This document shows, in pieces, positions 51,513 to 63,079 of a stretch of 64,000 nt of DNA. Both the position numbers and the translations under genes were made by a program. The DNA lies in the NCBI GenBank assembly GCA_964543785.1, contig CAZJAR010000001.1, forward strand, positions 4,909 through 68,908, given 5' to 3'. Source of the stretch: an uncultured Synergistaceae bacterium (lineage in GTDB: Bacteria > Synergistota > Synergistia > Synergistales > Aminobacteriaceae). The notes beneath the pieces were generated by a model, which saw nothing but the letters and a program-made list of their open reading frames with translations, ran no database searches and was not told where the DNA came from. The first letter of the stretch is position 1. Each line of letters begins with the position of its first letter.

Positions 51513-51546
51513 AAGCCCCCGGCCCGTACGGGCCGGGGGCTTTTTT
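51513..51546. terminator. Intrinsic terminator, probably bidirectional
   Basis: AAGCCCCCGGCCC-GTAC-GGGCCGGGGGCTT followed by Ts. Confidence 0.85.
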
Positions 51547-52801
51547 ATTCCATGTCCGCCCTGAGGACAATGCAGTTTCCCGATCCGACATAGACAAGGG
51601 GTCCCTGGGGAACGCGAGGAGTCATCCACTCCAGGGCGTCGCAGAAAGAGGCAAAGACTTCCCCGGGAAAGGGTGTCCCCTTCCTCTCCGTAACCAGTGC
51701 GGCCGGATGTCCCTTCATATCGGAGGGAAATTTGAGGGCGATGAAGCCGGGTATGGTAAACTCCCTCTCAAGCTGACTGAGGAGTGCCCTGGGATCGGCA
51801 AGTGCCAGCGGAAGGTCCCTGGCGAAGTTTCCCGGGCCAAGGCCGTCCTCGAGCCCCGCGCAGAGAATGAGCCCTCCTCCCGGCATCAGGGCTCCGAGGG
51901 AAGCTGTGATACTCTTGGTAGCCTGGTAAAGATCAATATCGTAGGGATATCCTCCGCTTGAAACCACCACGAGGGCTGCTTTCTCCGGGATGTGGAGGGT
52001 CTGGAGCGCCCTGGCCATCTCCACCCCTTTCCTCCACGCCTCTCCGAGGCTCCCGGCAGTATAGCAGCGGGGCTTGCCGGTTCCGTCAGGGACAACATTG
52101 AGCAGAAATATCGTTCTGCCCTCTTCCAGGAGCCTGCCGTATTCCTCCATATCCTCGGCGGCGGCGTTTCCCGAAAGGCGCCCCACGTTGATTTCAAGGC
52201 CTTCGATTCCCCCTCTCAGCAAGAGTCCGTGGTTGTTCTGGACGGACTTCCTTCCGCTGATGCCTGGCAGAAGAGCCTTTCTTCCCCCGCTGAACCCCGC
52301 GAGATCGTGGTACACAATGCCTCCCGCCAACACAAGCAGGTCCGCCTCGAGGGCTTCAGGTGCAATTGCCAGCGGAGTTCCACGGGATGTGACATATCCT
52401 GTATCAGCGACTTTCGCCGGGTCAGACCAGAGAATCCTGTCTCCGGGAAGGGCGGAGGGGCCAAGGAGAAGAGCTTTCTCTTCTTCGGTGGGCGCCCTGT
52501 GAAGCCCGGCACCGATGATCCACGTTACCTGGACACCTTCGCCGATTTCCTTCCTGAGCGCTCCGGCCATGAGCGGCACGTTCTGCCACAGCCGCGTGGC
52601 GTCAGGAAGAACCACGGCGATTTTCCGCGCGTTTTCTGAAAGGGATGACAGGCGGAGAGAATCAAAGGGAGCGGCGAGAGCCTCTTCCGGAGTTCCCGAA
52701 GAAAGGCGCTCCCCCCGGGGAGCGGGAATCACCACGTCCCGTGGAGGCGTCCAGGGGATGGTCTTTCTTCCAAGGGGTATGTTGATTGTGCGTTCAGACA
52801 T
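51545..52801 (-). CDS. LarA superfamily nickel-pincer-dependent racemase/epimerase
   Basis: PDATR, GLHR, YHDLAGFSGGRKA, NNH, DLYQATK; start ATG 52801 overlaps the regulator stop. Confidence 0.88.
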   Translation of the reverse strand: MSERTINIPLGRKTIPWTPPRDVVIPAPRGERLSSGTPEEALAAPFDSLRLSSLSENARKIAVVLPDATRLWQNVPLMAGALRKEIGEGVQVTWIIGAGLHRAPTEEEKALLLGPSALPGDRILWSDPAKVADTGYVTSRGTPLAIAPEALEADLLVLAGGIVYHDLAGFSGGRKALLPGISGRKSVQNNHGLLLRGGIEGLEINVGRLSGNAAAEDMEEYGRLLEEGRTIFLLNVVPDGTGKPRCYTAGSLGEAWRKGVEMARALQTLHIPEKAALVVVSSGGYPYDIDLYQATKSITASLGALMPGGGLILCAGLEDGLGPGNFARDLPLALADPRALLSQLEREFTIPGFIALKFPSDMKGHPAALVTERKGTPFPGEVFASFCDALEWMTPRVPQGPLVYVGSGNCIVLRADME

Positions 52802-53456
52802 TCTCTTTCTTCTCCTCAGAAAGCCCCGAAGGGCCCGATACGGCGTAATACGTTTTCGGCCTGCCGGGACGACCGTCCTGGACCCCTGCACTTCTCACGA
52901 TGAGCCCCCGCTCGGCGAGATATTCCAGGTACCTGTGGGCGGTTACGTAGGCCAGGCCGCAGGCGGCCGCCACGTCATCGCAGTCCCTTGGTGAAGGGAA
53001 TTCCTTGAGTTTCTCCAGGACCTTCCGCATGGTGTCCTTGCTGACGCCTTTCTTCCTTTCCTCCCAGTTCAGCTGATCCCTGTGAGCGCAGAGCTTCTCA
53101 TGAAGCCGTATTCGGGCTGTAAAATCAGCGAGGCGTATGGGCTTGGAAATGAAATCGTCTGCTCCGGCCAGCGTGAGCTGCGAGGCCAGCTCGCCGCCGT
53201 CCTCCACGGTAAGGGCGATGAGAACGAGCTTCGATGAAAGTTCCCGTGCTTTCCGTATGATGTGGAGTCCATTCATGACAGGCATGTGGAAATCCACAAG
53301 AAGAATATCCACCTCGTCAAGCCTCACCCACCGGAGGCACTCCTCCGGCTCGCTCGTGGTGAGCATTCGCCACCCTTCCGTGGATGCCATCGCTTCAAGA
53401 GTGTAGAGAATGGACCGGTCATCGTCAATTGCACCGATATGAAGCGGCATCATCAC
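52794..53456 (-). CDS. Response regulator, CitB/DcuR-like (REC + HTH)
   Basis: IDDD, phospho-Asp VDFHMP, ISKP; C-terminal AAACGLAYVTAHRYLEYL...GRP. Confidence 0.88.
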   Translation of the reverse strand: MMMPLHIGAIDDDRSILYTLEAMASTEGWRMLTTSEPEECLRWVRLDEVDILLVDFHMPVMNGLHIIRKARELSSKLVLIALTVEDGGELASQLTLAGADDFISKPIRLADFTARIRLHEKLCAHRDQLNWEERKKGVSKDTMRKVLEKLKEFPSPRDCDDVAAACGLAYVTAHRYLEYLAERGLIVRSAGVQDGRPGRPKTYYAVSGPSGLSEEKKENV

Positions 53457-61218: not shown

Positions 61219-62508
61219 CTACGGCAGCCAGCCCATGATGGTGTTCGCGTTGAGGATCACCACGACGGCCCACCCGGCGGTGACTACTGCCGGAATAATA
61301 CAGTGCCTGAGCACTTTGAAGTAATTCTCCTCACCGACGACCTGGGCGGCGAAAATACCCGCAAGGGCCGTTGGAGGCATGAGGTCCCCGAGACCTGCAA
61401 GGAGACTGAGCGCCGAACCCACCATGATTTCATTCTGTCCGAGAAGCGCCAGGAGAAAGGGAACCCCCAGTACCGAAGCGGCTCCAAAGGCAGAAACAGC
61501 GCCGAACAACGGTATGGATGTTGCCATTCCGAGATACATGAGCCAGGCGGGCAGAGCAAGGACCGACACCACGATGAACCCCTGAACGCCTACCAGGGTC
61601 ATGATCTGGATAAACATGCCGACCCCCATGAGGATTCCGAGGACTGGAATGGCATCGTTGACGGCTTCCCGGGATGCCTCGAGGAAATTCAGTTTCCGCC
61701 CGGTGAAGAGGGCTGACAGTGCAGCCAGGAGGAAATTCACCGGCATGCCGAGGGAGGGCCAGATTCCGGGAAGAAACTGCTCTCCCGTCATCAGGACCGC
61801 GAGAACGATCACCGGCACTATGAGCCTGAAGGAGAGCGGAGTCTCCTCCATTCTCCGAAGCTCTTCCTCGAGGGCGCCCTCATCTCCGGATCTGTTTTTC
61901 AGGTGAGGATAGACAAGGAGAAGGGCTGAAAAGACCGCCAGCGGAACGGTGCAGACAAGAAGAGGGAGAGCGAAGCCCACATAGGGCATGTCGATGCCGC
62001 CGCCGATGATCATGGCGGGGACGTTTACCGGAGGGGCGATCATCCCGTAGATGGCGCCCATCGCTATAGTCGCCGCAGTTTTAACGGCCGGAACGCCGAG
62101 CTTGATCAGGACAGGCGCGACCAGGGCCCCTGTTGTGAGAACGGCAGCCGTGGAGGATCCGGTGATCATCCCCGGAACCATGATGATGACCATAAGCCCC
62201 AGGCTGAGAAAGAGGGGTCTGGTTCTGAACGTGCGTATGACCCAGGCGGCAAGGCTTTCAAGAAGCCCCGTTTTCTGGACGGACTTCATGAAGATCATGG
62301 CAGTGGCGATAATAAGGATGGTATCGAGATAGCCGAAGGTTCCCTCGACGAAATGGCGAACAGGAAATCCTTCGCCTGCTGCGAGAGCTCCCACGGCCGC
62401 GGCAGCTCCCAGGGCAACGGCGATGGGGAGCTTCAGGGCAAAAGCCCCGAAGACAAAGCTCCCCACCATCGCCAGCGTATAAATTCCTTCAGGAATAAAC
62501 CAGTCCAT
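61219..62508 (-). CDS. DctM-like/ion transporter superfamily permease
   Basis: 429 aa polytopic; PGMITGSSTAAV, MIAPPVNVP, MPPTALAG. Confidence 0.8.
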   Translation of the reverse strand: MDWFIPEGIYTLAMVGSFVFGAFALKLPIAVALGAAAAVGALAAGEGFPVRHFVEGTFGYLDTILIIATAMIFMKSVQKTGLLESLAAWVIRTFRTRPLFLSLGLMVIIMVPGMITGSSTAAVLTTGALVAPVLIKLGVPAVKTAATIAMGAIYGMIAPPVNVPAMIIGGGIDMPYVGFALPLLVCTVPLAVFSALLLVYPHLKNRSGDEGALEEELRRMEETPLSFRLIVPVIVLAVLMTGEQFLPGIWPSLGMPVNFLLAALSALFTGRKLNFLEASREAVNDAIPVLGILMGVGMFIQIMTLVGVQGFIVVSVLALPAWLMYLGMATSIPLFGAVSAFGAASVLGVPFLLALLGQNEIMVGSALSLLAGLGDLMPPTALAGIFAAQVVGEENYFKVLRHCIIPAVVTAGWAVVVILNANTIMGWLP

Positions 62509-62527
62509 GGCGGGATTGCCTTCCGCC

Positions 62528-63079
62528 CTACCTGGCGGAGATTCCCCACTCCGAAAGGATTTCCCCGAGGGGAACGTTTGTTCCGTTCACGTTGGGGGCA
62601 GTAAGAATCTTCACGTCTTTGCCGGCGGTGAGCTTCTCAAAAACCCCGTCGCTGTTGCCGCCGTCCACAACGATGATCCTGTCTCCCCATGGCGCCGCCG
62701 CTTCGATAAAGGCATCGGACAGGGTTCCTCTGCGGCCTTCTCCGCCAATGTGCATGACGAGGACCTTCACTCCCTGGTCCTTCGCAGTTTTCAGCAGGGC
62801 GGTCACCCTCTCCACTTCCTGGTCCTTGTTGATTCCGGCTGCACCGAGGCCCTTGGAGCTGCCTCCCACCACCGCCACCAGGACCTTCCGGCCCGCAAGG
62901 GCGTCGGCTTTCAGCAGGGGTTCGCTGTCCGCGTCAATCTTCATCTTGCGAAGCACCACCCTCACCATCATCACATCGGGACTCTGTCCAACTGAGGTGA
63001 GAACCACGTCAGCCGCGAGGGCAGCCCCGGCGGTCACGAGCACCAGGAGCGCTGTAAGGGCGATAATCATTCTTTTCAT
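62528..63079 (-). CDS. Secreted protein, DUF6305-like
   Basis: Signal peptide; TSVGQSPD, VGGSSKGLGAAGI, MHIGGEGRRG; family name recalled from memory, not searched. Confidence 0.7.
   Translation of the reverse strand: MKRMIIALTALLVLVTAGAALAADVVLTSVGQSPDVMMVRVVLRKMKIDADSEPLLKADALAGRKVLVAVVGGSSKGLGAAGINKDQEVERVTALLKTAKDQGVKVLVMHIGGEGRRGTLSDAFIEAAAPWGDRIIVVDGGNSDGVFEKLTAGKDVKILTAPNVNGTNVPLGEILSEWGISAR

Follow-up and report, generated by a model that had tools for sequence, protein, structure and literature searches.

The 64,000-nucleotide (nt) stretch analysed here, hereafter the window, belongs to contig CAZJAR010000001.1 of an uncultured Synergistaceae bacterium and carries at 51545-63079 a run of 12 genes, all on the minus strand, with a possible role in the metabolism of a gamma-glutamyl polymer. 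The bacterium is an Aminivibrio-like member of the Synergistota, of a kind met in metagenomes of bioreactors and anaerobic digesters. Eight of the 12 genes form a conserved core, which encodes a DUF6305 protein, a distant DctM-family permease, a 47-amino-acid (aa) membrane microprotein, an AstE/AspA-type hydrolase, a gamma-glutamyltransferase (GGT) without a lid loop, and PgsB-like, PgsC-like and TIGR04332 proteins. A first-pass annotation, made from the letters alone, had listed 12 co-oriented genes and named their families; the listing of open reading frames with their translations, together with Pfam and NCBIfam scans, confirmed both. The features of the locus and its borders, in the order of transcription of the cluster, are as follows.

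63080-63258, no strand: divergent intergenic region, AT-rich, likely promoter of the first unit (sequence and translation)
62528-63079, minus: DUF6305 protein, 183 aa, with a signal-peptide-like N-terminus (PF19823, E 5e-48)
61219-62508, minus: distant DctM-family permease of the ion-transporter superfamily, 429 aa (PF06808, 45 bits over the full profile length)
61063-61206, minus: 47-aa membrane microprotein with two helices (translation; no Pfam or NCBIfam match)
59916-61049, minus: AstE/AspA-type (M14-related) zinc amidohydrolase, secreted, 377 aa (PF24827, 37.6 bits; cutoff 25)
58096-59841, minus: GGT, periplasmic, 581 aa (TIGR00066, 514.8 bits; cutoff 357.85)
58016-58065, minus: intrinsic terminator hairpin between ggt and deoC (fold and shuffle test)
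57314-57976, minus: deoxyribose-phosphate aldolase DeoC (TIGR00126, 271 bits)
56277-57296, minus: PgsB/CapB-like amide ligase of the Mur ligase family, 339 aa (TIGR04012, 97.7 bits; cutoff 222.7)
55844-56302, minus: PgsC/CapC-like membrane protein, about 146-152 aa (PF14102, 92.6 bits; gathering score 27)
54795-55847, minus: TIGR04332 "poly-gamma-glutamate system protein", 350 aa (TIGR04332, 294.4 bits; cutoff 100)
53425-54816, minus: sensor histidine kinase (HisKA and HATPase_c matches)
52794-53453, minus: response regulator with a DpiA/CitB-type helix-turn-helix domain (PF00072 and PF20714)
51545-52801, minus: LarA-family (nickel-pincer cofactor) 2-hydroxyacid racemase-like protein (Lar_N 115 bits, LarA_C 38.7 bits)
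51512-51543, no strand: GC-rich hairpin terminator of 14 bp between the convergent larA-like and SBP_bac_3 genes (terminator scan)
50750-51493, plus: orphan family-3 amino-acid-binding protein (SBP_bac_3), convergent with the cluster (PF00497)

The genes are tightly packed, and the early description of most junctions as overlapping or shorter than 20 nt was right except on either side of ggt. From the coordinates, the three junctions that join the DUF6305, DctM-like, 47-aa and M14-related genes are gaps of 19, 12 and 13 nt, deoC and pgsB are 17 nt apart, and the junctions downstream of the start of pgsB all overlap by 4 to about 30 nt. The two wider gaps are that between the M14-related gene and ggt (74 nt, counted from the ATG at 59841, a start codon preceded by the Shine-Dalgarno sequence GGAG) and that between ggt and deoC (119 nt). 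A promoter-like site lies at 63158-63131 on the minus strand in the divergent intergenic region, on the other side of which a gene for a protein with a transmembrane segment and a Cache-like sensor domain starts at 63259 on the plus strand and extends beyond the end of the window. Rfam and tRNA scans gave no match inside the locus.

One integrated system of 12 genes, as first described, is not what the transcription signals indicate. The hairpin after ggt has the perfect intrinsic layout of A-tract, 23-bp stem and U-tract, with a folding energy of -56.6 kcal/mol (z -5.7) that none of 200 shuffled sequences equalled. Metatranscriptome contigs from four independent runs span the genes from DUF6305 to ggt and all stop at 58068-58078, past which contig depth drops; deoC, pgsB, pgsC and the TIGR04332 gene are sparsely covered, and within this sparse coverage one contig bridges the junction between deoC and pgsB, which indicates that these two genes are co-transcribed. 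No contig covered the kinase, regulator or larA-like genes in the metatranscriptomes examined. Because the strong hairpin and the contig ends agree, the locus is best read as two units, 63079-58096 and 57976-51545, and the second unit ends at the hairpin at 51512-51543. The hexamer TACAAT, similar to a -10 element, occurs on the minus strand upstream of both ggt (59894-59899) and deoC (57999-58004), ggt has the deepest RNA contig coverage of the locus, and within the DUF6305-to-ggt block one run covers ggt alone; given the hexamer and the peak in depth, ggt may have a promoter of its own as well. One contig (run X25) omits 210 nt within ggt (58957-59168), which is either an in-frame deletion variant of 70 codons or an assembly artefact. 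When the regions upstream of the DUF6305 gene, ggt, deoC and the SBP_bac_3 gene were compared for operator motifs, no common word longer than a 9-mer was found.

To follow the cluster through other genomes, we scanned about 185,000 species genomes with the TIGR04332 alignment as anchor, which yielded 80 loci, mostly in Synergistota and otherwise in Lysobacterales and other Gammaproteobacteria, SAR324, Desulfosarcinaceae, Desulfarculaceae and the isolate Dethiosulfatarculus sandiegensis. Gene counts, made by tblastn with the proteins of the window, were restricted to the 41 genome loci with at least 8.5 kb of sequence upstream and at least 6 kb downstream. PgsB and PgsC genes adjoin the TIGR04332 gene in 40 of these 41, and in 30 the DctM-like, M14-related and GGT genes all lie no more than 10 kb from the pgsB, pgsC and TIGR04332 genes. 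A reciprocal scan of metagenome contigs, anchored on DUF6305, found the DctM-like and M14-related genes with DUF6305 in every locus with enough downstream sequence (32/32), and pgs genes in 15 of the 22 loci that extend at least 9 kb downstream; of the other seven, L099 is in fact linked at about 12-17 kb, as seen in locus L167, where a cassette of sugar ATP-binding cassette (ABC) transporter, DUF4432, PfkB and DeoC genes is inserted between ggt and pgsB. The first-pass annotation had made its proposal depend on whether the uptake and hydrolase block lies with pgsBC and the "pgsW-like" gene in other genomes, and this is what 30 of the 41 genome loci and at least 15 of the 22 metagenome loci contain.

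The linkage spans Synergistota, Gammaproteobacteria, SAR324 and Desulfobacterota, thus at least four phyla, and the order of the genes differs among them. One Lysobacterales genome has the order DUF6305-GGT-M14-DctM-49aa-M14-PgsB-GGT-racemase-PgsC-TIGR04332; Dethiosulfatarculus has the same type of order minus the racemase, and SAR324 has it minus the second GGT. A GGT gene stands between pgsB and pgsC in the gammaproteobacterial and desulfobacterotal loci, and it is to such pgs-embedded copies that the hydrolases of the window are closer: 47% identity for GGT, against 36% to the other copy, and about 60% for the M14-related enzyme, against 31-36% to the others. By these identities the GGT and the M14-related enzyme of the window are orthologous to the pgs-embedded copies. 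In a Fretibacterium metagenome-assembled genome (MAG; L035, 4786-13523) a divergent paralogous block likewise adjoins pgsBC and TIGR04332; its DUF6305, DctM-like and M14-related proteins are 39%, 33% and 42% identical to those of the window, its small protein has 59 aa, three genes for Peptidase_C69 (Ntn-hydrolase dipeptidase) occupy the place of GGT, and a gene for an LD-carboxypeptidase (S66) lies just beyond the block on the opposite strand. An Asp/Glu-family racemase gene lies inside the cluster in 17 loci (gammaproteobacterial and some desulfobacterotal ones), and a different Asp/Glu racemase of 267 aa is encoded just upstream of the pgs-less block in six loci; these racemases in or beside the clusters point to D-glutamate. 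Since the adjacency recurs across phyla it is far from chance, and a linkage over at least four phyla, shuffled and interleaved as it is, is strong evidence for functional coupling and rules chance out. The recurrence of the pairing in at least four phyla also indicates that synthesis and uptake are probably one functional system. One locus (L031, in an unclassified MAG) that we had considered as a variant without DctM was rejected as a decayed cluster; DUF6305 is reduced to 53 aa from its C-terminal part and GGT to a fragment of 135 aa (5037-5282 and 8998-9405), and a chemoreceptor gene is inserted.

The remaining four genes of the run do not share this distribution. In only 6 of the 41 loci is deoC found, and relatives carry at the same spot either a PfkB-DeoC pair or a series of sugar ABC transporter, DUF4432, PfkB and DeoC genes; we therefore rejected deoC as a member of the pathway and regard it as a passenger, the remnant of an inserted cassette for deoxyribose utilisation. 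The larA-like gene is confined to 5 of the 41 loci. Its product, whose best match in the PDB is the malate racemase Mar2 (E 6e-36) and in which GxGxHR, SGGxK and NH are conserved in the alignment, is plausibly a nickel-pincer hydroxy-dicarboxylate racemase and a lineage-specific accessory. Neither gene thus keeps the place in the system that it had been given at first.

The kinase and regulator genes occur together in 23 of the 41 loci, exclusively in Synergistota, where they lie downstream of TIGR04332, upstream of DUF6305 or upstream of pgs-only clusters. This variation in position among Synergistota loci argues for a regulatory link that is real but clade-limited, so that a two-component sensor of the system's own, as first proposed, would be limited to the Synergistota versions. 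The histidine kinase has a polytopic membrane N-terminus of about 240 aa with no recognised sensor domain. The SBP_bac_3 gene of the window has no adjoining permease or ATPase gene; beside the kinase and regulator genes it occupies the same relative place in 11 of the 41 loci, with 71-93% identity. Because it is more conserved than the cluster genes themselves, its product may act with the two-component system as a co-sensor or be one of its targets, its membership in the system being uncertain. In one Synergistaceae MAG (JAHDKT01; loci L001 and L007) there are two copies of a series of deoC, pgsB, pgsC, TIGR04332, kinase, regulator and SBP_bac_3 genes, and the block from DUF6305 to GGT lies upstream of one copy only.

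We compared the synthesis genes with the pXO2 CapBCADE proteins by BLASTP, phmmer and tblastn. The PgsB-like protein is 26% identical to CapB over 360 aa (E 2e-17, BLASTP), and TIGR04012 is far ahead among its NCBIfam matches, the next-best family reaching 16.9 bits; it contains the P-loop GSRGKS and no N-terminal membrane anchor, and it is classed from these comparisons as a CapB homologue and not as a certified equivalog. The PgsC-like protein shares 31% identity with CapC (E 2e-11, BLASTP) and scores 70.6 bits with TIGR04011, under the cutoff of 96.45; tblastn of this protein against plasmids gave no match. Homologues of CapA and CapE, absent also from the first description, were found neither in the cluster nor in the whole window nor in more than 160 related loci.

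The third gene of this group occupies the position of pgsA and had been called pgsW-like; the assignment to a poly-gamma-glutamate system protein family (TIGR04332) stands, and the name pgsW was not found in the literature searched. The product has basic termini and a domain of about 285 aa, of alpha/beta type and predicted to be periplasmic, between N- and C-terminal transmembrane helices. An AlphaFold2 (AF2) model of it has a predicted local distance difference test score (pLDDT) of 85, and neither a fold match nor a sequence match was found in the PDB. Across 60 sequences many Ser, Thr, Lys and Glu residues are invariant, and the invariant residues include Asp73, Ser85, Lys97, Ser129, Ser131, Glu144, Ser155, Ser159, Asn164 and Lys234. 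A Ser-His-Asp triad that had appeared in an alignment of 18 sequences was dropped, since His296 and Asp312 are less than 95% conserved in the 60, and descent from CapA was rejected on an hhalign probability of 0.3% and on the lack of any PDB sequence or fold match.

The GGT of the locus has an N-terminal hydrophobic signal in its translation and an invariant catalytic Thr395 in the alignment. The 11-residue insertion of the E. coli enzyme that forms the lid loop (GVPNVYGLVGG) is missing, as it is in CapD and in the GGTs of the related loci, and across this region the protein aligns gaplessly to B. subtilis GGT. Its best matches in the PDB are the B. licheniformis and B. subtilis enzymes; with CapD it shares 31% identity (E 2e-69, BLASTP), and its sequence match to CapD (E 3e-45) is weaker than that to Bacillus GGT (E 3e-121). 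Both the lid-less Bacillus GGT and CapD act on polyglutamate. The M14-related enzyme shows in its translation the motifs HxxE (as GGTHPTE), NLNRxYPG (here NLNRCYPG) and DLHE, so that the zinc ligands HxxE...H and the NR substrate motif are kept, and its best PDB relatives (E 3e-07) are DoeB and enzymes of the AstE/AspA type, which are deacylases of N-acyl-amino-dicarboxylates. Because the C-terminus of gamma-glutamyl-glutamate is chemically an N-acyl-glutamate, it is a reasonable inference from these relatives that the enzyme is a candidate gamma-glutamyl carboxypeptidase.

The DctM-like permease is remote from its family, with 45 bits for PF06808 (gathering score 23.8) compared with 385 and 371 bits for the two canonical DctM proteins of the window, to which it is about 26% identical over part of its length; its match to a DctMQ chain in the PDB is weak (E 0.03). 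The canonical proteins belong to two operons for tripartite ATP-independent periplasmic (TRAP) transporters, DctP-DctQ-DctM, at 12590-15402 and 25716-28559 on the minus strand, with strong Pfam scores. Directly after the DctM-like gene, in Synergistota, Gammaproteobacteria, SAR324 and Desulfobacterota alike, there is always a gene for a conserved protein of 47-49 aa, for which the 47-aa consensus is M.LIYR.IVLFVL.LV.RC.FREK.FWKQ.TAALV.IPL.LRLLMIK. The 47-aa protein has no Pfam or NCBIfam match, and thus none to DctQ, and no similarity to CapE. Its high conservation and constant place after the permease indicate that this is a real gene and that the protein is probably an obligate permease subunit. 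CapE is also 47 aa long, and the possibility that the microprotein is its analogue was rejected, given the lack of similarity and the fact that the gene tracks the DctM-like gene in pgs-less loci.

DUF6305 carries the invariant motifs TSxGQSPD, GGSSKGLGAAGI and HxGGxxRRG in the alignment. It is modelled with high confidence (AF2 pLDDT 90.8) as one flavodoxin-like alpha/beta domain of about 160 aa; glycine-rich and Arg-Arg loops lie along the C-terminal edge of its sheet. No PDB structure matched the model with a TM-score above 0.5, the hits being generic flavodoxin-like, SGNH and Rossmann folds, and no sequence relative was found in the PDB. From the model, it may be either a small binding protein of a new kind or an enzyme of the periplasm. 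In non-Synergistota loci the DUF6305 gene adjoins GGT, and GGT and an M14 gene separate it from the permease. The "new transporter type" of the first-pass annotation is unproven, given a DUF6305 protein with no binding-protein match that stands apart from the permease in those loci.

We interpret the locus as serving the metabolism of a gamma-glutamyl polymer in a diderm bacterium through two modules that can be separated yet are linked in function. We consider this reading about evenly balanced between right and wrong, and all its biochemical steps, like the topology and the transport direction, are inferred. In module S, comprising the PgsB-like, PgsC-like and TIGR04332 proteins, a cytoplasmic PgsB with its membrane partner PgsC would use ATP to polymerise glutamate through gamma-amide bonds at the inner membrane, and the TIGR04332 protein, in place of the non-homologous PgsA/CapA, may serve to elongate the chain or to release it into the periplasm. 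Module D would comprise DUF6305, the DctM-like permease, the 47-aa microprotein, the AstE/AspA-type hydrolase and the lid-less GGT. The periplasmic GGT would remove or transfer the N-terminal gamma-glutamyl residue and the zinc hydrolase would act at the C-terminal N-acyl-glutamate end, so that chains could be degraded from both ends; the permease, with its obligate microprotein, would take up the freed glutamate or a short gamma-glutamyl peptide, and DUF6305 would be a periplasmic partner that handles the ligand, either as a binding protein or as an enzyme. In loci with a racemase the monomer would be at least partly D-glutamate, and in Synergistota the CitB/DpiA-type two-component system would regulate the set. 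The two modules each occur alone and are separately transcribed here, yet they are held together by selection. A more far-reaching version, which is tentative and which we are inclined to doubt, holds all of the following jointly: that DUF6305, the DctM-like permease and the microprotein are an unrecognised class of three-component secondary transporter for gamma-glutamyl products, that TIGR04332, though not homologous to PgsA, replaces it and so makes a polyglutamate synthase of diderm bacteria complete, and that a periplasmic cycle of making and recovering polyglutamate, as a store or an envelope polyanion, extends from Synergistota to Gammaproteobacteria.

Several observations weigh against this interpretation. 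The PgsB-like and PgsC-like proteins both score under the NCBIfam equivalog cutoffs, and for that reason the product may differ from classical PGA. The cluster encodes no component for export across the outer membrane, and DUF6305 is unlike any known solute-binding protein when its structure and sequence are compared with the PDB. Ten of the 41 genome loci have pgsBC and TIGR04332 without the uptake and hydrolase block, and a group of metagenome loci has the block without pgs genes within 10 kb; since both modules also occur alone, an obligate coupling of synthesis and recycling is not supported. The contig-based RNA evidence is weak, since the inverted repeat by itself could break assemblies. 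Finally, in the literature we found neither the name pgsW nor a paper that mentions DUF6305 or TIGR04332, nor, from any organism, a measured product, enzyme activity or transport for a member of this cluster type.

The alternative that survives best, although we judge it unlikely, is that module D mainly scavenges exogenous gamma-glutamyl or N-acyl-glutamate compounds, such as PGA of the community, glutathione-like peptides or stem-peptide fragments of peptidoglycan such as gamma-D-glutamyl-meso-diaminopimelate (gamma-D-Glu-mDAP), that the cell's own polymer is not recycled, and that the nearness to pgsBC and TIGR04332 reflects only a common glutamate pool or common regulation. The loci in which module D stands alone, preceded by the 267-aa racemase, fit this well, as do its separate and apparently stronger transcription in digester metatranscriptomes and the lineage of the host, which is one of amino-acid-fermenting Synergistota of digesters. 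The Fretibacterium block, with C69 dipeptidases in place of GGT and a nearby LD-carboxypeptidase gene, and an M14 paralogue that weakly resembles Csd4-type M99 peptidoglycan carboxypeptidases tend in the same direction. What the scavenging alternative does not readily accommodate is the retention of the pgs linkage over at least four phyla despite rearrangement, together with the placement, outside the Synergistota, of the orthologous GGT and M14 genes in among pgsB and pgsC. That placement is hard to explain without a common substrate.

A further alternative, which appears improbable to us, makes GGT and the M14-like protein enzymes of maturation or anchoring: GGT would act like CapD and transpeptidate the polymer onto peptidoglycan or another acceptor, and the DUF6305, DctM-like and 47-aa set would serve synthesis, through import of glutamate or translocation of the product, and not recovery after breakdown. 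The homology to CapD (31% identity, and lid-less as well) and the embedding of GGT between pgsB and pgsC in Gammaproteobacteria and Desulfobacterota are in keeping with such a role, and with CapA and CapE absent other proteins must fill their functions. The GGT nevertheless scores above the cutoff of the canonical GGT equivalog model and lies much nearer to Bacillus GGT than to CapD; DctM-family proteins are, as a family, carriers of small molecules; module D exists without pgs genes; and the 47-aa protein tracks the permease and not the synthetase. That the adjacency is meaningless, a product of inherited synteny and chance among 12 unrelated neighbours, is scarcely credible and was already strongly disfavoured, for although two of the genes, deoC and the larA-like gene, are unrelated passengers, the locus is divided by a strong terminator and both modules can stand alone, the eight core genes keep together in Synergistota, Gammaproteobacteria, SAR324 and Desulfobacterota in different orders and with duplicated members, and a divergent paralogous block again adjoins pgs genes.

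Other parts of the window were annotated in passing. A thiamine pyrophosphate (TPP) riboswitch (RF00059, 58.9 bits) at 5002-5106 on the minus strand is the sole Rfam match in the window. A glycogen-type cluster at 28691-37437 encodes a GH57/DUF3536 enzyme, a glucan phosphorylase, a starch/glycogen synthase and a GlgC-type nucleotidyl-transferase. The region at 43053-50188, on the minus strand, holds genes for a diaminopimelate (DAP) epimerase, a Liv-type branched-chain amino-acid ABC transporter and an Orn/DAP/Arg decarboxylase, probably lysA. Elsewhere, a distant decarboxylase of the Orn/DAP/Arg family is encoded directly after the pgs-only clusters of four loci (L072, L074, L075 and L078).

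The biology of poly-gamma-glutamate (PGA) rests almost wholly on Bacillus and its relatives, and how diderm bacteria make, place and reuse such a polymer is little charted. According to one review, PGA has been shown in a single Gram-negative species, Fusobacterium nucleatum (PMC3815933). The eight-gene set, which is carried by anaerobes and marine bacteria, many of them uncultured and a few cultured, holds a candidate PgsA-independent synthase, two families without a function (DUF6305 and TIGR04332) and a candidate gamma-glutamyl carboxypeptidase. If the two-module interpretation is true, it would give functions to DUF6305 and TIGR04332, widen the repertoire of TRAP-related transporters, and could explain the turnover of glutamate and extracellular polymer in anaerobic digesters, where these Synergistota are active.

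Among known systems the closest are the Bacillus loci (capBCADE on pXO2 of B. anthracis; pgsBCAE with pgdS/ggt in B. subtilis). In both, the pgs locus of B. subtilis and the cap locus of B. anthracis, the synthetase has a depolymerase or an enzyme of GGT type (PgdS, CapD) encoded beside it, and GGT allows B. subtilis to reuse its PGA. Common to these loci and the one described here are a CapB/PgsB-type ligase, its CapC/PgsC partner and, beside the synthetase as CapD is, a GGT-family enzyme that is lid-less like B. subtilis GGT and CapD. The differences are that the Bacillus loci have CapA/PgsA and CapE/PgsE, whereas this locus has neither and encodes the non-homologous TIGR04332 protein as the third component, and that here the PgsB lacks an N-terminal anchor, the host is a diderm and the PgsB and PgsC fall under the equivalog cutoffs. 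Joined to this locus, and to none in Bacillus, are the transporter, the microprotein, DUF6305 and the AstE/AspA-type hydrolase.

TRAP transporters (DctP-DctQ-DctM) share with the first genes of module D a three-part layout of large permease, here a DctM-like one, small membrane protein and secreted protein. The DctQ proteins of the window, however, have 169 and 182 aa and score 92-102 bits, compared with a 47-aa protein of two helices and no DctQ match here, and in place of the two-lobe DctP or TAXI binding protein there is a single-domain DUF6305 protein, which in some phyla is not encoded beside the permease. A literature search for PGA together with TRAP transporters returned nothing relevant.

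In cyanophycin clusters (cphA with cyanophycinase and isoaspartyl dipeptidase) the synthetase of an amino-acid polymer is encoded beside hydrolases that remobilise the polymer. With this locus they share, by analogy only, a Mur-ligase-related, non-ribosomal synthetase beside remobilising hydrolases; the polymer is another one, stored in cytoplasmic granules in contrast to the predicted periplasmic or extracellular product here, and the sequence relation goes no further than the Mur ligase superfamily.

The CapsuleFinder model of a PGA capsule has CapB and CapC as mandatory, CapA and CapE as accessory and CapD as loner components, and this locus encodes homologues of both mandatory ones. PGA capsule systems were particularly abundant in Synergistetes in the CapsuleFinder survey (PMC5542703), and CapB has been noted in Gammaproteobacteria and Synergistota (PMC11915815); because CapB/CapC are already listed in Synergistetes by such surveys, the presence of pgsBC is not new. 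TIGR04332, DUF6305, the DctM-like permease with its microprotein and the AstE/AspA hydrolase are not given as linked components in either survey. What has not been described before is thus the conserved coupling of the pgs genes to those for DUF6305, the DctM-like permease, the microprotein, the AstE/AspA hydrolase and GGT, together with the putative substitution of PgsA by TIGR04332, a protein known only as the name of a curated family.

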